From Nitrospirales bacterium (GTDB lineage: Bacteria > Nitrospirota > Nitrospiria > Nitrospirales > UBA8639), in assembly GCA_963555755.3 (NCBI GenBank), contig OY820905.2, forward strand, positions 2,784,001 through 2,848,000: a stretch of 64,000 nucleotides of DNA. The letters are read 5' to 3'. Position 1 is the first letter of the stretch; each line of letters begins with the position of its first letter. A program made the position numbers and the translations under genes. This document shows positions 13,507-56,853 of the stretch, one piece after another. A model generated the notes under the pieces. The model was not told where the DNA came from and made no database searches. It saw only the letters and a list, made by a program, of their open reading frames with translations.

Positions 13507-15063
13507 ATGAGCGCTAGGGACCTGTATGACAGCCTGCATCCCCTCGAAGTCCATCTCCTTGCGGCGTTGTTTGCACAATCAACTGCCACGTCTGACAGCA
13601 CACTCGCGGAACTGACGCCCCTCGATCCTTCGCAAATCAGCATGGCGCTGGGCTGGCTCCAGGCCAAAGCCCTGATCCAAACCGAATCCGAAACCATCAC
13701 TTTCCTGGTTGGGTTAACCGATGTAGGCCGAGGGTATTTGTCGAGCGGGTCTCCCGCGGAGTGGATTCTTCAATCCTGTGGGGAAGCGACACAAAATAGG
13801 AATTCGCTCACCGTCAAAGACCTGCAAGCCAAAGAACAGTTTCAACCCACTGAGTTGAGCCGGGCCATCGGGCTGTTGAAAAAAGAAGGCGCCATCCAAA
13901 TGGTCGCTGGGGGCGCCATTGAAACGACCGGCACACCCAGTCCAACCACCGAAACGCTCAAGGGTTTACTTCGGCAACTCAAGTCTTCCACCGAGGAGCT
14001 TCCTGCCTTTTCCACCGACAATCAAAACCTGCTGAAACAATATTCCGTGAAACGCGGGAATGCCAAGGAACCTTTCCGGATCGAAGAACGAGTGGAGCGA
14101 GCTTACACGCTCACCTCCGAAGGGCAACACGTGGCCAAACTTTGTCGTCCTGGTGCGACTGAGGAAATCTCTCAACTCACCCCAGACATGCTCAAGGATG
14201 GCACGTGGCGCAACAAACCGTTTAGAAAATACACCATCAATCTTCGACCACCTCGAGTAGCGCCTGGCCGGCGGCATCCTTATCGAGAGTTTCTCGATCT
14301 CGTAAAACGCCGGTTGGTGAGCATGGGATTTCAGGAGATGCGCGGCCCCTTGGTGGAAACCGAATTTTGGAACATGGATGCGCTCTACATGCCTCAGTTT
14401 CATCCGGCTCGCGCGATTCACGACGTGTACTTCGTGAAAAATCCCAGGCATGCTGATAAGATCCCGGAACCCTTTCTCTCTCGCGTTGCAGAAGCCCACG
14501 AACATGGCGGGTCTACGGGATCCACTGGTTGGGGCTATCAATACGACCGAGAACGGGCTAGCCGACTGGTTTTACGAAGCCAGGGCACCGCGGTATCGGC
14601 CCGAACATTAGCAGCCAATCCCTTGGTGCCTGGAAAGTATTTTTCGATTGCCCGGTGCTTTCGATACGACCAGGTGGATGCAACCCATGCCACGGACTTT
14701 TTCCAGGTTGAAGGAATTGTTCTTGGCGAAGACATCAATTTTCGCACGCTTCTCGGCCTTCTCACTCTTTTTGCCAAAGAGATGGCCCAGGCCAAAGAGA
14801 GCAAGTTTTTGCCAGCCTATTTTCCCTTTACGGAACCGTCCGTGGAGTTGCACGTTCGCCATCCTCGGCTGGGATGGATGGAGTTGGGAGGGGCCGGTCT
14901 GTTTCGACCGGAAGTGACTCACCCCCTCGGCGTGACCGTACCCGTGATTGCCTGGGGATTAGGTCTGGATCGAATGGCCATGATGGCGCTCGGACTTCAT
15001 GACATCCGAGATCTATTCTCTGTCGATCTGGAAAAAGTCAGAACCATGCGTGGACGCTTTTAG
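13507..15063 (+). CDS. pheS: Phenylalanine-tRNA ligase alpha subunit, long archaeal-type form
   Basis: 518 aa with N-terminal extension; FWNMDALYMPQFHPAR, YFPFTEPS, AWGLGLDR. Confidence 0.95.
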   Translation: MSARDLYDSLHPLEVHLLAALFAQSTATSDSTLAELTPLDPSQISMALGWLQAKALIQTESETITFLVGLTDVGRGYLSSGSPAEWILQSCGEATQNRNSLTVKDLQAKEQFQPTELSRAIGLLKKEGAIQMVAGGAIETTGTPSPTTETLKGLLRQLKSSTEELPAFSTDNQNLLKQYSVKRGNAKEPFRIEERVERAYTLTSEGQHVAKLCRPGATEEISQLTPDMLKDGTWRNKPFRKYTINLRPPRVAPGRRHPYREFLDLVKRRLVSMGFQEMRGPLVETEFWNMDALYMPQFHPARAIHDVYFVKNPRHADKIPEPFLSRVAEAHEHGGSTGSTGWGYQYDRERASRLVLRSQGTAVSARTLAANPLVPGKYFSIARCFRYDQVDATHATDFFQVEGIVLGEDINFRTLLGLLTLFAKEMAQAKESKFLPAYFPFTEPSVELHVRHPRLGWMELGGAGLFRPEVTHPLGVTVPVIAWGLGLDRMAMMALGLHDIRDLFSVDLEKVRTMRGRF

Positions 15064-15186
15064 CAGGATGCTGAAAAAGTCCGCCAGCGGCGTTCTCGGC
15101 CCCTTGTCGTGCTCACGTACTATGAGTACGCTCCGCGCGCCAAGGCGCCTGCGGCCTTGCTGGACAGCCTTTTTCAGCATCATGCT
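15062..15186. repeat. Family D element between pheS and pheT
   Basis: TIR GGATGCTGAAAAAG / CTTTTTCAGCATC; core GCTCACGTAC..GTACGCTCCG. Confidence 0.9.
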
Positions 15187-15238
15187 TTTGTTAAGGGGTT
15201 CAGAAACTTTTTAAACCATCAAAATTTTTGTTAACGAT

Positions 15239-16945: not shown

Positions 16946-17011
16946 TTCTTAAAGCGTCCTGCCTGAAGAATCAGAAACACTCCTTTCGGTGTTGCCGAAG
17001 AATTATTTAAT

Positions 17012-17204
17012 GTGGGCTTTCGCGCCCACACGACGAGTCACTTTTGTTCCGGCAAAAGTGACCAAAACCATGTTCGCCCGTGCGCGGCCCTCCGGGTGCC
17101 TCCGCCTCCCTCCCGAATCAAGATGGCTCGGGACCTCGCTCCGCTCAAACAACCCTCGCCGAAAAGTCGATTCGGGATGGAGACTCCGCCGCGCCCAACG
17201 CGGG
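17012..17204 (+). repeat. Family E structured repeat E1 (alpha-like subtype)
   Basis: Outer hairpin, CACTTTTG..CAAAAGTG stem, invariant CTCGCTCCGCTCAAACA; 5 copies in window. Confidence 0.9.
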
Positions 17205-17404
17205 TTGAGGGGAGCTTGTGATATTTTTTGCTTTCCTAAACTCTCAACAAAAGATTTGATAATCAAATTTCCAAATTTGACCACAAATTCCAAATTTCTC
17301 CACAACCTTACCCCTTAACTTGATACCAATAGTTGACAGGTCAATCCATATCGGAAACTGGGGTTTCTCTTGATTTATAATTATCATGACAATATGATGG
17401 CATT

Positions 17405-17695
17405 ATGGTTGAACATTTCTTCACCTGGGATGAAAGCAAAAACCTAGAAAATCAACACAAACACGGGATCTCATTTAAAGAAGCTGCGACGATCTTCACC
17501 GATGAGAACGCGCGCATGATTCATGACCCGGACCATTCGGCAGATGAAGACCGATTCATTCTCCTTGGATTCAGTTCTAAAGCGCGGCTCATTGTTGTGG
17601 CACATACCTATCGGAAGCATGAAACGGAAATCCGAATTATCTCCGCTCGAAAAGCGGAAAAATATGAACGTGAAGAATATGGGAGTTTCCTATGA
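17405..17695 (+). CDS. brnT: BrnT-family (DUF497) ribonuclease toxin
   Basis: FTWDESKN..N..KHGISF, EDRFILLG, IRIISARKA. Confidence 0.9.
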   Translation: MVEHFFTWDESKNLENQHKHGISFKEAATIFTDENARMIHDPDHSADEDRFILLGFSSKARLIVVAHTYRKHETEIRIISARKAEKYEREEYGSFL

Positions 17696-17904
17696 GAAAA
17701 AGATACGATTTTTCCAAATCGGTAAAGAATCCTTATGCGAAGCAATTAAAGAAGCAGGTCACTCTTCGTCTCGGGATCGATGTTATCGCCTACTTCAAAA
17801 CGTTGGCTGAAGAAACAGGGATTCCGTACCAGAATCTGATAAATCTGTACCTTAAGGAGTGCGCGCATTCCGGGAAAAAACTTGGTCTCAAGTGGGCATC
17901 CTGA
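17692..17904 (+). CDS. brnA: BrnA/CopG-like antitoxin
   Basis: YDFS..KNPY, GIPYQNLINLYL; ATGA overlap with brnT. Confidence 0.85.
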   Translation: MRKRYDFSKSVKNPYAKQLKKQVTLRLGIDVIAYFKTLAEETGIPYQNLINLYLKECAHSGKKLGLKWAS

Positions 17905-17973
17905 AAATCTGCACAATAAGGAATGGTTCAACAGGTTGGAGGAAGATAGATTGTTTTTTAGGGAATTATTTTA

Positions 17974-18169
17974 TGCAGGGTTTCGTCCCCGCGCGACGAG
18001 TCACTTTTGTTTCGGCAAAAGTGACCAAAACCAAGTTCGCCCGTGCGCGGCCCCAAGGGGGTCCCTCCGCCTCCGCACCGAATAAGATGGCTCAGGAACT
18101 CGCTCCGCTCAAACAGCCTTCGCCAAAAAAGCCGATTCGGTACTACGGCTCCGCCGCGCCCAACGCGGG
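17974..18169 (+). repeat. Family E repeat E2 (alpha subtype)
   Basis: Homologous to E1 and E5. Confidence 0.9.
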
Positions 18170-18322
18170 TAGAGCTAGACTTTTGATATTCTTACAAAAC
18201 TCTTAACAAAAGATCTGCCTCCAAACCTTAACGACAGCCGATGAGTTTCATTGTATAGGGAATTCTAAGGGCTTATACTACGCAAACAGAAAGCCCAGAT
18301 CTTTCCCTGCACATTCGAATTA

Positions 18323-18536
18323 GGGACTGTTGAATATCTCATACACAGATCCCATAAATACGCCGGGGAAGACGACCAACATCAGTGAGAGGAAATGTTC
18401 AAAAAAGCATGCCCTGAGTCTTTCCGAAGGGTCTATCCAGCAAGGCCGCAGCCCTTTGGACGCGCAGAGCGTACTCTCAGTAGGTGAGCACGGCAAAAGG
18501 GCGAGAACGCCGCTGGTGACTTTTTTCAACATTCCC
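18323..18536. repeat. Family D element, extended form with nested mini-hairpin
   Basis: Core 18391-18536; extra GGGACTGTTGAATA end; insert at 18408-18431. Confidence 0.85.
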
Positions 18537-18571
18537 AATAATTAAGTGAAAATTAATCAGGACATATATTA

Positions 18572-19300
18572 ATGAAGGGTGGTTTAACCAAATCCCAGGT
18601 TGACCGACTCGGGGACAAATTAAGAAATAATCTGCATAATGAGACAGACCTAAAATTGCTTGATGAATTTCGTAGATCATTTCATGAGGCGTACAAAACA
18701 GCAATAAATACTATACGTGATCGGACCAATATAGAACCCACTGGCAGACCAGCTAAGTCTACAAGTGCAATTATCGAGAAACTTAAACGAGAAAGTATTC
18801 GGCTCAGCCAAATTCAAGATATCGCGGGATGCAGAATCGTAGTGGCTACAATTATTGAGCAAAACGTGGTCGTCTCTTCCCTATACGAAGCTTTTCCAGA
18901 GAAAATTATAGTTGACCGTCGACTTAAACCCAGTCACGGGTATCGGGGAGTTCATATCATCTCCCAGATCAACGAAAAACCTATTGAAATTCAAGTCCGA
19001 AGCACTTTGCAACACCTATGGGCTGAATTTTCTGAGAAGTTGTCAGACGTTGTTGACCCCAGTATTAAGTATGGGGGTGGAGATGCTATAGTTCGAAAAC
19101 TGCTCCAAGATTGCACCTTACTTGTAGAGGAAATAGAAAGAATCGAATTAGGTATTGCGGGTCGAAAGAAGAAAAAATTAGACAGAAATAACAAAATTCA
19201 GTTGGAGGATTTTCAAGGCAATGTAGGAAAGATTAAAAACAAAATGGCAAAAGAACTCAAGAATTTTATAAGAGAATATTCAGAGTTATCGGAGCAATGA
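18572..19300 (+). CDS. RelA/SpoT synthetase-domain protein (SAS), CapRel/PhRel-like putative toxin
   Basis: RPAKS..IIEKL, QDIAGCRI, GYRGVH, EIQVRS.LQHLWAE; no hydrolase domain. Confidence 0.88.
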   Translation: MKGGLTKSQVDRLGDKLRNNLHNETDLKLLDEFRRSFHEAYKTAINTIRDRTNIEPTGRPAKSTSAIIEKLKRESIRLSQIQDIAGCRIVVATIIEQNVVVSSLYEAFPEKIIVDRRLKPSHGYRGVHIISQINEKPIEIQVRSTLQHLWAEFSEKLSDVVDPSIKYGGGDAIVRKLLQDCTLLVEEIERIELGIAGRKKKKLDRNNKIQLEDFQGNVGKIKNKMAKELKNFIREYSELSEQ

Positions 19301-19303
19301 GAA

Positions 19304-19546
19304 ATGATTTTTTTAATGGAATACGATCGATCAAAAGGAGAGTTAGTGAAATTCACCAGCTTCCAGGATGCTGACCGAACGAAAGCTGAAAATCTAAGGT
19401 TAAAGATTGAGATGGAGCTTCATAAACTTCATCAAGAACGAGAAATAGTATTATTAGAAGCTCCTAGTGAAGACGCCCTCCGTCGTACACATCGACGCTA
19501 CTTTGAAAAAGCAAGTCAGATAGGCCAGTCTGTGAGCGAAGGCTAG
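19304..19546 (+). CDS. Small protein, putative antitoxin of the upstream SAS
   Basis: Starts 3 bp after the SAS stop; EIVLLEAPSEDALRRTHRRYF resembles the CapRel C-terminal antitoxin region. Confidence 0.7.
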   Translation: MIFLMEYDRSKGELVKFTSFQDADRTKAENLRLKIEMELHKLHQEREIVLLEAPSEDALRRTHRRYFEKASQIGQSVSEG

Positions 19547-19687
19547 CAATCTGCTCAAGCTGACTTTTTGAGCAGCGTATGGTTTAGAATGAATGTTGGG
19601 TGAGAAAAAATCTGCATAAATCCCCGTTTGATTTCCCATCTCCGCGCCCCGGTTTAAAAATTTGATTTGTTTCTTGCTTATCTCCTC

Positions 19688-19882
19688 CGCCTTCGGGCGC
19701 GGCGGAGCTGCGGTGCCGAATTCGACTATTCGGCGAGGGCTGTTTGAGCGGAGCGAGTTCCCGAGCCATTTAATTCGGCACCGGGGCGGAGTTCACCCGT
19801 AGGGACGCGCACGGGCGAAAATGGTTTTGGGTCCTTTTGCCGAAACAAAAGTGTCTCGTCGTGCCGGGGCGAAACCCGGCAT
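19688..19882 (-). repeat. Family E repeat E3 (beta subtype)
   Basis: TGTTTGAGCGGAGCGAG; closest to E4. Confidence 0.9.
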
Positions 19883-19950
19883 TAATAAAAACCAAACCAC
19901 TTTGTATACTGAGATGAAATTGAAAAAGATTGAGAAGGGAAAGACTCTAC

Positions 19951-31759: not shown

Positions 31760-31790
31760 ACAAACGGTGTCCTGGGGAACAAATATATCC

Positions 31791-31981
31791 AGGGAATGTT
31801 GAAAAAAGCCGCCAGCGGCGTTCTCGCCCTTTTGCCGTGCTCACGTACTATGAGTACGCTCCGCGCGTCAAAAGGGCTGCGGCCTTGCTGGACGGACTTT
31901 TTTGAACATTCCCTCTCACTGACGATGTGGGGCTCATCTGGAGCGTGTATTGGCTATTGACGCGAATTATTCAACAGCCCC
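31791..31981. repeat. Family D element, extended form
   Basis: Core 31791-31914 with TIR GGGAATGTTGAAAAAAG; tail ends ATTCAACAGCCCC. Confidence 0.88.
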
Positions 31982-35422: not shown

Positions 35423-36166
35423 ATGAAATTTGTCTGCTTAAATTGCGAAACGTATATGAATTTTGAAAAGGTTGAAAAGCCTGCCGAAGGGACACTTGGT
35501 GTGTTTTTCGCCTGTCCGTCCTGTGATGCCAAAGTGTCGATGGTGACCAATCCGGGGGAAACCCAAATGGTCAGTACTCTTGGGGTACAACTCGGCGGAC
35601 GCACCGTCGATGCTATACCTCTGGAAATGACGCGGGGAACCTTAAAAGAGGAAGTGAGTGCCCCGGCAGACTCAGCGTCCATGGCTGCCTATCTCAATGA
35701 CAAAATCCAAGCGGGGGAAAGTGCAGCACCGGCTGGAGCGACAACCGCGAAGGAAGGCGAAGGAGGTTGTCCCTTTTCCGCGATAGTCGCGCAGATGGGA
35801 TTGACCACAGGCGGCACCTCAACCGGAACTCAACAATCCGATCTTCAATGGACACCCGATGCGCAAGAGCGTTTAGGCAAACTCCCCTCCTTTGTCCAAC
35901 CCATGGTCAAAGGCAGTGTCGAAACCTATGCAAGGAAGAATAGCTACACCACTGTGACGCTCCAAGTCATGGATGATTCGAAGAATAATACATCGGATGG
36001 GATGAATTGGTCTCCTGAGGCCGAAGAGCGGCTGAAAAATATTCCAGACTTCATTCAACCCATGGCCCGAAAAGAAATTGAGCGTATAGCCCAAGAGCGT
36101 GGCGTGACTACCATCTCCGCAGAACTCATGGACGAAGCCAAAGACAAGTTCATGAAGTTTATGTAA
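35423..36166 (+). CDS. CxxC/CxxC protein with two C-terminal PCP_red-like repeats
   Basis: CLNC...CPSC; WTPDAQERL.KLPSFV and WSPEAEERL..IPDFI. Confidence 0.75.
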   Translation: MKFVCLNCETYMNFEKVEKPAEGTLGVFFACPSCDAKVSMVTNPGETQMVSTLGVQLGGRTVDAIPLEMTRGTLKEEVSAPADSASMAAYLNDKIQAGESAAPAGATTAKEGEGGCPFSAIVAQMGLTTGGTSTGTQQSDLQWTPDAQERLGKLPSFVQPMVKGSVETYARKNSYTTVTLQVMDDSKNNTSDGMNWSPEAEERLKNIPDFIQPMARKEIERIAQERGVTTISAELMDEAKDKFMKFM

Positions 36167-36185: not shown

Positions 36186-36218
36186 AAAAAAGGCGGCTCA
36201 CTTGAGCCGCCTTTTTTT
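36186..36218. terminator. Intrinsic terminator, possibly bidirectional
   Basis: AAAAAAGGCGGCTCA-CT-TGAGCCGCCTTTTTTT. Confidence 0.85.
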
Positions 36219-36236: not shown

Positions 36237-36268
36237 GTCATTCCCGACATCCTTTATCGGGAATCCAG
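36237..36268. repeat. REP-like hairpin GTCATTCCCG...CGGGAATCCAG
   Basis: ATTCCCGA / TCGGGAAT palindrome. Confidence 0.6.
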
Positions 36269-36278
36269 AATTTATTTT

Positions 36279-36473
36279 ATGCGGGGTTTCGTCCCCGCAC
36301 GACGAGGCACTTTTGTTTCGGCGAAAGTACCCAAAACCATGTTCGCTCGTTCGCGTCCCTGCGGGTAAACTCCGCCCCGGCACCGAATTAAATGGCTGCG
36401 CAACTCGCTCCGCTCAAACAGTGCTCGCCGAATAGTCGAATTCGGCACCGCGGCTCTGCCGCGTCCGAAGGCG
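36279..36473 (+). repeat. Family E repeat E4 (beta subtype)
   Basis: Closest to E3, including the inward flank. Confidence 0.9.
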
Positions 36474-36704
36474 TGGGAGATACTCAAAAAACAAATAAAG
36501 TTTTTTAACGGGAGGCAGGGAGACCGAACCATAAACGCAATTCTCATGCCTCTGATCTAAGTTCTGGTACTTGGATTATTAGCTGATATGTGGCATTGAT
36601 AGACATGCTCCCTTCTCGAATTTCCTTCTTTTTTCGGCACAGATAAATTTGGTAGGCGCCCATGAGCCCCAAAAGTTTTCCTCTACTTAAGGAGAAAAAA
36701 TAAG

Positions 36705-38036
36705 TTGGCAATTTGTCTAGCTATTTTCCTAATTGCTTTTAATCTATTTATCCCACCCCCAGCGATAGCCGTGGATTTTGAGGATATCCCACCCTCTGTT
36801 CGGCAATCCGTAATCCGGCTTTCAGGAAATTCAGGGTGTGCGACGGGGTTTATCGTTGGAAATCAAATCGTGACAAATGCCCACGTGACAGAAAAACTTT
36901 GTCCTTACGGAGAATGTGATCCCATCACGGTTAAAATACTGGACTCGGTAGAAACCGAATCCTGGAAATATTTAAAAAACCAAGAGGCCGTAATGGTACA
37001 AGAAGTTCCTACCTTAGACGTGGCTCTGCTTAAAATACCGAGCATCACCCAAAATTCAATTTCACAAACCAGTTTTTCTTCAGCGAAAATTGGTGGCCAG
37101 GTCTATATTTTAGGGTTCCCAAGTTGCGGGGACATTACGCTGACAGAAGGCAAAATTTTGGCAAAAACCCCCACTGGATTCCGCACCTCCGCTTTGACAA
37201 AAAAGGGAAGTAGCGGCAGTCCGGTCTTTAACCAAAACTTTGAGATCATTGGGGTCGCAATGCAAAGTAGCAGTCTTATAGGCGGAATTGCCTCGTTACC
37301 TTTTAACACTTCAACACCTACCGATTTTGTAGATATAGGCTATACACAGACTGTTCTCTGGTCTAAAGATTCAGAGTTAGCCCTTATCGAAATGAAAATC
37401 TTAAATTCCATATACCGTGATTTTGTCGTCTCATCAAAAGGCCTAGATCGAATGCGTGCCAGCTTTGACTTCATTATGGCCGCAGATGTTGTATTGCGAC
37501 GTTCGTCATTTTTTCTATTGGACAAGGGAACCCTGTTTGCCCTTTTTGCTGGACGAGAAAATTCTCTGAATTTTTTAAGACATCCGTTTAAGCCCTCAAG
37601 CCCGGAATTGCTAGAAGCCGAAAAACTTGGGACGGCCTTTGCCTTGGAAGTGTATGGGTTGCACGATGAAACCTTTGAGGAGATTGATGTTCCTGCCCTT
37701 CTTGAGAACCTACGAGATTCCGGGCGTTCTCGCCATCATGCTCAAAGTCTTGAAGAACTTATTTCATTGGCACAAGTCCATAAACCCGCTAATTGGATTT
37801 TTTCAATTTTATTATTCTTTGGGTTTGGGTTGTCCTTACTTGCGGCATGGGGATGGTCCTTAGGTTATGTCTTTAAAGCCGCTAATGGCTCCTGGCACCT
37901 TCGAATTCTAAAAATGATGGTGATAGGTTTGATGTTGTGGCCTTTATCGTTGATTGCATTCTGGCTGATGAATAAACCACAACAAATTCCTGAGCCCACC
38001 AATTCCACTAACCCATCGAATCAGGGGATTCACTGA
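36705..38036 (+). CDS. Trypsin-like serine protease with signal peptide and C-terminal TM helices
   Basis: Triad motifs IVTNAHV, DVALL, GSSGSPV; start uncertain. Confidence 0.8.
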   Translation: MAICLAIFLIAFNLFIPPPAIAVDFEDIPPSVRQSVIRLSGNSGCATGFIVGNQIVTNAHVTEKLCPYGECDPITVKILDSVETESWKYLKNQEAVMVQEVPTLDVALLKIPSITQNSISQTSFSSAKIGGQVYILGFPSCGDITLTEGKILAKTPTGFRTSALTKKGSSGSPVFNQNFEIIGVAMQSSSLIGGIASLPFNTSTPTDFVDIGYTQTVLWSKDSELALIEMKILNSIYRDFVVSSKGLDRMRASFDFIMAADVVLRRSSFFLLDKGTLFALFAGRENSLNFLRHPFKPSSPELLEAEKLGTAFALEVYGLHDETFEEIDVPALLENLRDSGRSRHHAQSLEELISLAQVHKPANWIFSILLFFGFGLSLLAAWGWSLGYVFKAANGSWHLRILKMMVIGLMLWPLSLIAFWLMNKPQQIPEPTNSTNPSNQGIH

Positions 38037-38077
38037 GGGTTTCAGGCTATAGTCCCTGTGTGGCTATTTTTTCTTAC

Positions 38078-38270
38078 CGCCTTGGGGTGCGGCGGAGCCG
38101 CAGCCCCGAATCGATTTCTCGGCGAGGGCTGTTTGAGCGGAGCGAGTTCCCTCGCCATCTTATTCGGGGCGGAGGCGGAGGGACCCCATGGGCCGCGCAC
38201 GGGCGGAAATGGTTTTGGGTCCTTTTGCCGAAACGAAAGGACCTCGTCGCGCGGGGACGAAACCCCGCAT
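38078..38270 (-). repeat. Family E repeat E5 (alpha subtype)
   Basis: Closest to E2 (GGGGTCCCTCCGCCTCCGC.CCGAATAAGATGGC). Confidence 0.9.
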
Positions 38271-38414
38271 AAAATAAAACACCGCTGGATTCCTGCCAGC
38301 AACTTCGACAATAACTCAAATTGGATGAAAGATCCTGAGTCGAAGTTCGAGGAGAAATTTATTTGAAAGTGGTTAGAGAAAAGAAGTCCAGATGGACGGA
38401 AGGGAATCGATTTC

Positions 38415-39428
38415 TTATTCGCACCAAGTGCCCGGTTGACAGATCGCAGTTGTTGATGGAGAAGAAACTGCAGAAGTAGAGACTGATTCGGTTGGGGTTG
38501 AGGCTTCGCACCAGGATCCCAAAGCGCATTCGGCCGGGGCTGATTGAGATGGGTTCGGGGCACTTGCCCCCACACTTTGTGGAGAAGGATTTGCCAGCAT
38601 TCCAGAGTTTGCATTCGGGGTAGATTGATTCAGCGGAAGAAAGCTGGTCGTGAGAAGATTGGTGTTCAACGTGCCTAAGTTTTGCGCGACCACGAGATCG
38701 GGATGTTCCTTTTGAAGCTTCGCCAACATTTTCAAGCCATCATCTCGTAATTTGTGACGTGGATGTTCACGGACTAAGGCGATCAGCCAGTCCCGCGACC
38801 AATCGGGGGCGCCTAAATCCTTATAGGTTTTGGCCAATTCATATTTGGCTTTCGCCGCCGCTTCCAAGTGGGGATAGGACTCAATCACCATTTTGTATCG
38901 TTTGGCTGCCGCGAGATAGGCTTCCTTTTGATAATAAAATTCCGCCACAAACAGATGGTGCTGGGCCAAGAGGTCTTCGCATTCGCCAATCTTGGTTCTG
39001 GCTTCGGCTTCATACCGACTGGCTGGGTGGTCCTGCATCAGTTGGATGAACTCTTCGCGAGCTTTTTCAATAGGGCTGACATCGCGATCAATGGTTTGAA
39101 TCATTTTAAAATGGCTGAGGGCTAGTCGATACTGTGCGTAGGGTGCCAGCACATGGTTGCGATGAAGATCTAAAAAGTGTTGATATTCGACGATGGCTTC
39201 AGCATAGCCCTCTTTATCATGGAAGGATTCAGCCCTTTTCATGATGACGTTGGGGTCGTAGTTCATTTCAATGGTGTCCCCAACAAAGATCTGTTCGTCC
39301 GTCCCACTGAGCGGAGCGTTTGTGGAGGCAGATTCATTTTCCGGCGTGCTTGTGCAGCCACCGAGTAGAATTGCTGCGAGAAACATGGCGCCGACCGCTA
39401 TGGATAAATTTTTTGTGGAGATTGTCAT
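38415..39428 (-). CDS. bamD: Outer-membrane assembly lipoprotein BamD
   Basis: Lipobox LGGC; TPRs; PYAQY, IDRD, VAEFYY...AAAKRY. Confidence 0.85.
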   Translation of the reverse strand: MTISTKNLSIAVGAMFLAAILLGGCTSTPENESASTNAPLSGTDEQIFVGDTIEMNYDPNVIMKRAESFHDKEGYAEAIVEYQHFLDLHRNHVLAPYAQYRLALSHFKMIQTIDRDVSPIEKAREEFIQLMQDHPASRYEAEARTKIGECEDLLAQHHLFVAEFYYQKEAYLAAAKRYKMVIESYPHLEAAAKAKYELAKTYKDLGAPDWSRDWLIALVREHPRHKLRDDGLKMLAKLQKEHPDLVVAQNLGTLNTNLLTTSFLPLNQSTPNANSGMLANPSPQSVGASAPNPSQSAPAECALGSWCEASTPTESVSTSAVSSPSTTAICQPGTWCE

Positions 39429-39586
39429 AAATTTAAAACGAAAGAACATGCTCCAGCCCGCAACCTTTTAATACTATCATAAATACGTACTTTCACGCAA
39501 GATTTCTTCCGTTTATGTTTCCATAATGCAGATGTGATATCCACAATGCACCTACCCATTTTATAATGTGAAGATGAGGGTTTTTC

Positions 39587-50446: not shown

Positions 50447-51523
50447 TATGCCTTCCCATTTGACTAAGGTTAGTCCCTAGACTAGTCTGCTGGACTATGG
50501 ACACAGGGTATGCTGCTGATATCTTGGATTTTTCTGTTAGGTTCCACACCGAAGAAGCGTGCTTCGAGTACTTGCGGGCGATTCGGTGGCCAGACGGGTT
50601 TATGTGTCCAGCTTGCGGTCATCGCGGTGGTTGGTGGCTCAAAAAATATTTCCGGTTTGAGTGTTCGTCGTGTCATAGACAGACATCACCGCTAAGCGGC
50701 ACAGTGATGCATAGATCGCACTTGCCGCTACGGCTTTGGTTTTGGGCTGCGGCACAGTGATGCATAGATCGCACTTGCCGCTACGGCTTTGGTTTTGGGC
50801 TGCCTATTTCGTCTCCACGCACACACCTGGCATCAGTGCTGTGCAATTGCAGCGTCAACTCAGTATCAAGAAGGTGGATAAGAAGGTGGATAGCGCCTGG
50901 TATTTGCTCCACAGATTGCGACGAGGAATGGTACGACAGAACCGTGAACGGCTCGCAGGAACAGTTGAAGCCGATGAAACCCATATCGGTGGACCGGTAA
51001 AAGGCAAAACGGGCCGTGGCGTCGCGAAAGCGAAAACCAAGACGTTAATAGCCGGAGCCGTAGAAATTGTCACGTACACACAAGGGGATCACTTTCGAGA
51101 GAAAGCAGGGCGTTTACGATTAGCGATTCTTCAAGACGCTGGAGAGAACGAGATCAAAGCATTCCTCAATAGCCATGTCGCTGAGGGCAGTAAGATCAAG
51201 TCCGATGGTTGGAAGGGATACTCGGCAAAAGCCTTGGCAGGATACGAACACCTGAGACGGACCCAGGGTGACCCAGCAAGTGCTGGGAAGCACGCTCCAC
51301 ACATCCATAGAGCGTTCGGCAATCTGCAGACCTGGCTGAACGGGATTCACCATGGAGTGGATTCAAAATACCTGCAACACTATCTTGATGAGTTTGTCTT
51401 TCGCTATAACCGCCGTGAGACTCCAATGAGTACCTTCCAGAGTTTGTTGAAAATCCTGACCAGCAGCTCAAAACCCTTGGGATTCAATAAACTGAAGCAA
51501 CCTTAGTTAAATGGGAAGGCATA
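50447..51523 (+). mobile_element. IS1595-family insertion sequence
   Basis: 25-bp TIR TATGCCTTCCCATTTRACTAAGGTT (1 mismatch); 8-bp DR TGGGATAA at 50439-50446 and 51524-51531. Confidence 0.92.
50497..51506 (+). pseudogene. IS1595 transposase, frameshifted
   Basis: Zn ribbon RWPDGFMCPAC; VEADET, SDGW, YLDEFVFRYNRR; split by a 53-bp tandem duplication. Confidence 0.88.
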
Positions 51524-54396: not shown

Positions 54397-56458
<2,062 letters not shown>

Positions 56459-56601
56459 CTCTCGTGCTTGAATATCCAGTGAATGAGTTATGTTAGTATG
56501 CGCCATTGAGAATTTGGAATTATGCCACAGTCCTCATCTATGAACTTAAGCAGGTGGTATAGGCTGCCGGTTATAGGTGTTGAGGTCACAATGTGGCCCA
56601 T

Positions 56602-56632: not shown

Positions 56633-56654
56633 CTAGAAGAAGTCTCTATTCATC

Positions 56655-56740
56655 TCCGCTTCCCTACGCTGGTATGATCCAGATCAGGTGGTAAGGGTTG
56701 TCTTTCTCGAAGACTCTCAGCCGCGGGGCTCCCCTAGCTG
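56655..56740 (-). ncRNA. TPP riboswitch
   Basis: Minus strand AGGGGAGC..GCTGAGA..ACCC..ACCTGATCTGGATCATACCAGCGTAGGGAAG upstream of thiC. Confidence 0.95.
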
Positions 56741-56853
56741 TTTATTAAGAGGGAATGGTACGCTTCGCCCCGATCCGTGTCAATCGGCTTGTTGGCGGAA
56801 AGGAGTCTCATCAGTCACGAACTATACCTTCCAGACTCATCAATGTACAAGGT

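Follow-up and report, generated by a model that had tools for sequence, protein, structure and literature searches.

A protease island between inverted repeats in a Nitrospirales genome is probably the filling of a gene-exchange hotspot and not a new transposon

The protease gene that lies between two inverted copies of a repeat, here called E, in the genome of a Nitrospirales bacterium is likely an ordinary filling of a gene-exchange hotspot and not a new transposon. It is located in a stretch of 64,000 nucleotides (contig OY820905.2, positions 2,784,001 to 2,848,000), referred to as the window. An initial annotation of the window had proposed that the gene and the two repeats form a minimal two-ended non-autonomous element. 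The protease gene likely arrived by recombination through the conserved flanks, and the two repeat copies, E4 and E5, are likely independent residents and not the two ends of one transposon. The repeat itself likely marks variable slots and helps to reshuffle them.

The anatomy of the island was described correctly in the initial annotation: terminator, E4 (+), protease gene, E5 (−) and the 3' end of bamD follow each other in that order. These features and a second island of the same system are located at the following window positions:

35423 to 36166, plus strand: core gene with PCP_red domains, the left anchor of the variable slot
36186 to 36217, plus strand: hairpin with T run resembling an intrinsic terminator, also found in relatives
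36237 to 36268, plus strand: REP-like palindrome, left half of the inverted doublet that encloses the island
about 36270 to 36487, plus strand: E4, composed of an AT tract, hairpin H1 (36281-36298), a palindromic core hairpin H2 and a long tail stem with a conserved loop inside
36705 to 38036, plus strand: accessory gene for a trypsin-like serine protease of 443 aa (Pfam Trypsin_2), the single open reading frame between E4 and E5
about 38066 to 38281, minus strand: E5, the second E copy, with its head to bamD and its tail to the protease gene
38285 to 38315, minus strand: degenerate REP-like palindrome, right half of the doublet
38415 to 39449, minus strand: bamD, with its 3' end at 38415; a derived neighbour that is the right flank here and in genome G005 only, maf being found elsewhere
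16998 to 19896: island 1, with E1 (+), a brnT pair, E2 (+), a RelA_SpoT-domain gene with a small gene, and E3 (−)

The hairpins face outward as described, with GCGGGG..CCCCGC at both ends (36281-36298 in E4, 38251-38268 in E5) and the AT tracts outermost. E4 and E5 are identical at 164 of 203 positions (81%). The REP-like palindrome of the enclosing doublet is present in 37 intact copies in the whole genome. The layout of E(+), cargo and E(−) with differing cargo recurs in the window genome (G000) and in relatives. The RelA_SpoT-domain gene and the adjacent 80-aa gene of island 1 (18572-19546) both match PADLOC PDC-S33 in its split form. The assembly of the protease island is backed by one contig of sequencing run X1, which spans 36400-38146 with 0 differences. 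The depth of this run, which may be the source sample, is 130 over the island compared to 134-142 on the flanks. Two sediment runs showed lower depth across the protease gene and were not used as evidence, and read joints at the island derive mostly from other E copies and are uninformative. None of the RNA runs covered the stretch well. Position 38456 within bamD is an A in the window and a G in two high-depth runs, possibly due to an assembly error or a strain difference.

Based on its sequence, the product is a predicted serine protease that is exported and anchored in the membrane. The gene has a GC content of 43.5%, and its product matches Pfam Trypsin_2 with an E-value of 1e-16. The residues H60, D105 and S170 as well as four cysteines are conserved across 17 homologues. 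The protein harbors a hydrophobic N-terminus, a helical domain and hydrophobic C-terminal helices. In the predicted structure (pLDDT 80) the protease domain is followed by helices, and fold matches to the model cover the protease domain only. The fold and the His-Asp-Ser triad are shared with the trypsin-like S1 proteases, namely the protease domain of HtrA/DegP, Spl/V8 and MarP. The island protease differs from these in having no PDZ match in Pfam and in its helical and hydrophobic C-terminal part of about 200 aa, which matches no Pfam family. Furthermore, it scores under every NCBIfam cut-off. The closest homologues belong to Nitrospirales, and the family is broader, with 132 clusters at an E-value <=1e-30 and names including Oligoflexia, Dadabacteria and Deltaproteobacteria. 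A role in defence, raised earlier as speculation, gained no support beyond generic PADLOC matches; these are confined to the trypsin-domain stretch, and no defence model was matched over its full length.

The slot behind PCP_red is a gene-exchange hotspot between converging core genes. The region was recovered from 83 of 101 genomes with a match, and both flanks were found in 72. Among these 72 genomes the contents vary, the slot being empty or holding different cargo: 33 contain cargo with E, 13 cargo without E and 5 E without cargo, while 21 are empty and lack E. The slot is filled in 46 genomes, 13 of which are devoid of E. Two-ended E patterns occur in 16 and one-sided patterns in 22 of the 72, and the order −+ does not occur. 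The 131 cargo ORFs represent 83 families, and the same families are found with and without E (G086/G127 vs G019/G075; G008/G074 vs G067/G073). Cargo and E are associated with an odds ratio of 10.7 among genomes that, being kin, are not independent. The 3' end of PCP_red is duplicated within the slot in G002, G009 and G122, and an E(−) lies directly behind PCP_red in G008. Contrary to the use of bamD as the reference neighbour in the initial annotation, maf is the usual right flank and the ancestral one. Genome G005, in which PCP_red adjoins bamD, was rejected as a clean empty site, because an E-head remnant, fused to the right REP, occupies the gap, which looks like a deletion scar. No clean pre-insertion site for the protease island was found. 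A second type of precise truncation occurs in G104 (L427) and G111 (L420), where the E head in the slot is cut off immediately behind the core hairpin and borders directly on maf.

Many gene-transfer hotspots carry no mobility gene. Hotspots that lack an integrase and are filled via recombination in the flanking core genes were described in the sections available of Oliveira et al. 2017 (PMC5635113). According to these sections and to parts of a report on toxin-antitoxin islets (PMC13617665), such hotspots resemble the slot in their fixed core genes, variable cargo rich in toxin-antitoxin genes, absence of a mobility gene, and occurrence of one gene at one slot across lineages. Unlike the hotspots in these excerpts, the Nitrospirales slots are bracketed by a long, structured and polarised repeat, and their flanking genes are re-paired between genomes.

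The protease gene is accessory and not core, as it is present in only 3 of 115 family genomes, which belong to two genera, and is always located behind PCP_red. In G107 (L076) and G129 (L077) it directly follows the same PCP_red terminator; an E(−) lies downstream, and the left E is missing. Two metagenome contigs (L155/L156), which probably represent one organism, carry it between PCP_red and maf without an E match. The suggested check for flanking E copies thus failed on the left side in two genomes and on both sides in the metagenome contigs. Synteny in relatives without E, named beforehand as the finding that would refute a two-ended element, is largely what these loci display, but the gene is not core. 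No convincing E was detected at L154, which encodes a 53% homologue, or at L100 with a homologue from Bdellovibrionota, and the locus of a homologue with 91% aa identity (L153) retains E5 and the same right flank. None of the loci retrieved had the protease between two E ends outside the PCP_red slot. When 31 full-length E copies were ranked by similarity, E4 was 15th and E5 24th relative to its partner, and paired copies were no more alike than random ones (0.766 for three pairs vs 0.768 overall). A target duplication was visible neither at the protease island nor at two other E pairs (three of three pairs), and 12 alignments of filled and empty sites were noisy, with no clear target duplication. 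At fourfold sites, identity to the other genus is 88/157 and 69/142 for the protease vs 67/190 and 72/196 for flanking core genes. This excess over mrp and PCP_red (p=1e-4 and 0.03), which differing base composition could inflate, suggests that the protease gene was transferred into the same slot after the genera had split, since its sites are closer between the genera than those of the flanks.

E is not local but occurs genome-wide, so that the inverted pair must be weighed against this background. The window genome (4.62 Mb) contains 139 HMM pieces of E, corresponding to about 121 copies in 62 clusters. The unit comprises about 215 bp and several hairpins; its head is sharp and follows about 10 AT-rich bases, and its tail is ragged. 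Double changes occur in 14 of 29 predicted pairs across 51 aligned copies. A hand-set structure gave 188 compensated cells, compared to 65 after shuffling and no more than 37 in slid controls; these counts come from related copies and are not probabilities. The stems covary, in contrast to the near-invariant core. As folding of a single copy is not significant (z −1.8 for DNA, −1.1 for RNA), the structure rests on this covariation. Tentatively, the strand that folds is the one read from tail to head, because A-C mispairs outnumber G-T mispairs in three stems (41 vs 8); two U-G pairs at helix ends point to the opposite strand. No Rfam family was matched at the gathering score, and no description of the repeat and its polarised architecture was found in the open-access papers searched.

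Neighbouring copies less than 7 kb apart in the window genome are arranged +− in 24 cases, ++ in 17, −− in 14 and −+ in 4 (p=2e-4), counts that include a few split or collapsed copies. The bias is weaker in six other genomes, with 15 inward pairs vs 6 (p=0.08). Arrays read ++−, +−− and ++−−. According to crude gene calls, 46 of 78 heads face the 3' end of a gene, many within about 60 bp of the stop, and 32 face a 5' end. Toxin-antitoxin pairs are frequent in the cargo of 20 clusters in the window genome, as are genes of the PIN, HEPN, GNAT and glyoxalase types (from a scan of 111 of 247 ORFs), and relatives add TIR-domain and candidate defence matches. Retro-capture of mRNA was rejected, as the direction of the cargo relative to E is unbiased (35 vs 43). 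Solo copies between core genes occur in genus g4. Among the matches listed for orthologous sites, E is mostly not closest to its orthologue, and vertical descent at these sites was rejected on this ground.

Several observations connect E with rearrangement. When loci of G002 and G003 were compared to G000, synteny was broken in 14 of 21 intervals containing E vs 2 of 65 without E; 4 of these 14 involve cargo genes, the loci were picked around E, and the comparison includes no control for convergent spacers. G000 and G002 carry a HigBA cassette (82% nt identity) at different sites, bounded by co-oriented E heads and tails. An ORF6N cassette also recurs between co-oriented E ends, a different site being established for HigBA only. 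Collapsed copies with the order head-core-head were detected in 9 of 115 genomes, at 20 sites in total. At one of these sites G003 has a full island, and the two arms of most collapsed forms do not match each other. The reciprocal tail-core-tail junction, which would be attP-like, was present in none of the 115 genomes. A segment of about 2 kb that ends in E(+) is tandemly duplicated with 97.5% identity in the window genome (G000:C1:2470115-2476662).

Four kinds of element insert into E: an IS4-like DDE element, an insert of about 120 bp, a group II intron fragment and IS110. The IS4-like element (2.58 kb, DruA and DDE_Tnp_1, 792 aa) occupies the same small E hairpin at G000:C1:1962178-1964757 and four further sites. 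At 575844-578622 it lies between two E heads in inverted order, which suggests an IS-mediated rearrangement. The hairpin repeat of about 120 bp inserts at the same position of E at G000:C1:833870-833991 and elsewhere, and is abundant in the window (15060-15189, 31788-31917, 56332-56461). ORF-less, group II intron-like inserts of about 660 bp follow the E core hairpin at G000:C1:823939-824597, 3131338-3132000 and 3779209-3779886, and are also present in G129. Apart from elements inserted in or beside E, no recurrent enzyme gene was detected among 702 adjacent ORFs, and no HUH gene recurs next to E. RAYT/IS200, IS91, reverse transcriptase and integrase were each considered as the mobiliser of E, and none was consistently linked to it. 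The window genome encodes 16 tyrosine recombinases, two of which are close to E and, judging from their context, resemble core Xer genes. It is rich in elements, with 35 reverse-transcriptase, 17 Y1 and 15 Y2 transposase matches.

The explanation that we consider probable, if by a modest degree, is an ordinary hotspot that acquires cargo via flanking homology, in which a separately mobile, polarised E then acts as portable homology. Some enzyme acting in trans would spread E, which would tend to land head-first at the 3' ends of genes. A tail-inward pair would then be automatic, because the heads land at the 3' ends of two converging genes. Resident copies would provide portable homology for ordinary recombination, by which cassettes may be swapped between co-oriented copies, flanking genes re-paired, as at the junction of PCP_red and bamD, and islands deleted at the palindromic core. 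However, the odds ratio of 10.7 exceeds what a passive passenger needs, even though kin are not independent. The 32 of 78 heads that face 5' ends mean that the 3'-end rule leaves some of the polarity unexplained; the E(−) right behind PCP_red in G008 and the weak inward bias in six other genomes also count against this explanation, and no enzyme that spreads E was found.

It is rather unlikely, although several features would fit, that E serves an integrase-free cassette system as its dedicated recombination site. In such a system, a host or roaming enzyme would cut the palindromic core on folded single-stranded DNA and add, swap or excise cassettes, in a manner similar to integron attC sites. 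The near-invariant core between covarying stems, the mismatched arms of collapsed copies, which place the crossover in the core, the arrays, and the cargo of toxin-antitoxin pairs, PIN, GNAT, glyoxalase, HEPN and TIR genes are consistent with such a site, as is its targeting by four kinds of element. In contrast, this reading is opposed by the absence of a tail-core-tail junction and of a recurrent enzyme, the unbiased cargo direction and the 13 of 46 filled slots without E. Truncated copies likewise stop at the core, because introns insert there, and slippage between short repeats within long inverted repeats can explain the collapse. Excision by such slippage is known for Tn10. An attC site is a single long hairpin, and attC sites form co-directional arrays in integrons and CALIN. 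E shares with these sites the cassette-type cargo, the covarying hairpin stems and the insertion of group II introns and IS110, but has several hairpins, converging arrays, cargo in either direction and no consistently linked integrase.

The core motif of E is present in 43 of 66 other genomes of the family and in none of 234 other genomes of the class. Copy numbers of E in the 115 family genomes range from 0 to about 104. A covariance model gave only weak matches elsewhere in the phylum, and 12 matches in one of 50 unrelated genomes, a Pseudomonas (G454; L461-L470). There, E relatives that share the core hairpin form two tail-inward pairs located inside inverted REP doublets, and this REP is one base off the SBW25 GIII 16-mer. 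The conserved loop occurs in 119 stretches of viral contigs (L471-L589) with 57 distinct contexts. A flanking stem is present in 24 of these contexts, compared to 2.5 when the partners are shuffled, and in 13 it is accompanied by an upstream core-like hairpin, compared to 0.2 after shuffling. Because of these stems and hairpins and the Pseudomonas relatives, E likely belongs to a wider superfamily. Many of the contigs with the loop are unrelated and prophage-like, and some loops lie beside replication-type genes. No E was detected in plasmid and phage records, and no exact E core in viral contigs. The further step, that E represents Nitrospirales in an undescribed superfamily of folded single-stranded DNA sites that spans phyla and whose members run an integrase-free cassette system, is doubtful. 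The site would consist of the core hairpin and the invariant loop within a freely rewritten stem, and a tail-inward pair would provide one folded site per 3' end of the cargo strands, for recombination and possibly as a priming signal. If this were true, dozens of gene ends would serve for the capture, exchange and excision of toxin-antitoxin and defence cassettes, and blocks of the chromosome would be shuffled. The invariant loop may resemble primosome-assembly signals. This likeness was not confirmed in the portion of PMC5935869 that was available.

Less probable still is that E is a REPIN-like passenger, in which case the REP doublet and a RAYT would move E pairs, sometimes together with cargo. 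The protease island does lie inside an inverted REP-like doublet, and the tail-inward pairs in Pseudomonas are nested in doublets as well. However, only 11 of 103 E heads are preceded by the REP of the doublet, a Y1 transposase was not found in the E-rich genomes G003, G058, G065 and G070 and is broken in G106, paired copies are not more alike, and E shows no replichore bias (66 vs 55, in a rearranged genome). Unlike the single-strand elements IS200/IS605 and IS91, E shows neither replichore bias nor a linked HUH transposase. According to parts of Bertels and Rainey 2011 (PMC3337134, PMC3116915), REP, REPIN and BIME sequences with their RAYT are, like E, extragenic, multicopy, structured, arranged in inverted doublets and targeted by other elements, and E relatives nest within REP doublets. 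In contrast to REPINs as characterized in these parts, with REPs of 20-60 bp and a hairpin-forming spacer, E comprises about 215 bp and several hairpins, its spacers hold whole genes, its pairs are not better conserved, and it is not associated with RAYT.

The two-ended non-autonomous transposon, inserted whole, is very unlikely: inverted ends, a single cargo gene of low GC content, the 24 tail-inward pairs of the genome and the retained E5 and right flank in L153 agree with it, but E4 and E5 share 81% identity and each has closer copies elsewhere in the genome, a target duplication is not visible, homologues in the same slot have one E or none, and G107, G129 and L155/L156 already largely refute it. 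Composites flanked by MITEs (IMU, NFM2-MITE), as outlined in the excerpts of PMC3184786, likewise have two repeats of about 200-400 bp around passenger genes, but E differs from them in lacking terminal inverted repeats, in its non-identical copies and in the absence of a visible target duplication.

E marks dozens of slots, and its polarity at them is fixed. It coincides with the breakpoints of rearrangements, and its collapse leaves precise scars. It thereby offers a testable handle on whether exchange is driven by RecA or site-specific. Furthermore, E pairs indicate where candidate defence and toxin-antitoxin cargo lies in relatives of nitrifiers. Elsewhere in the window, a TPP riboswitch (Rfam RF00059) is located at 56644-56745 and a perfect tandem duplication of 53 bp at 50696-50801.
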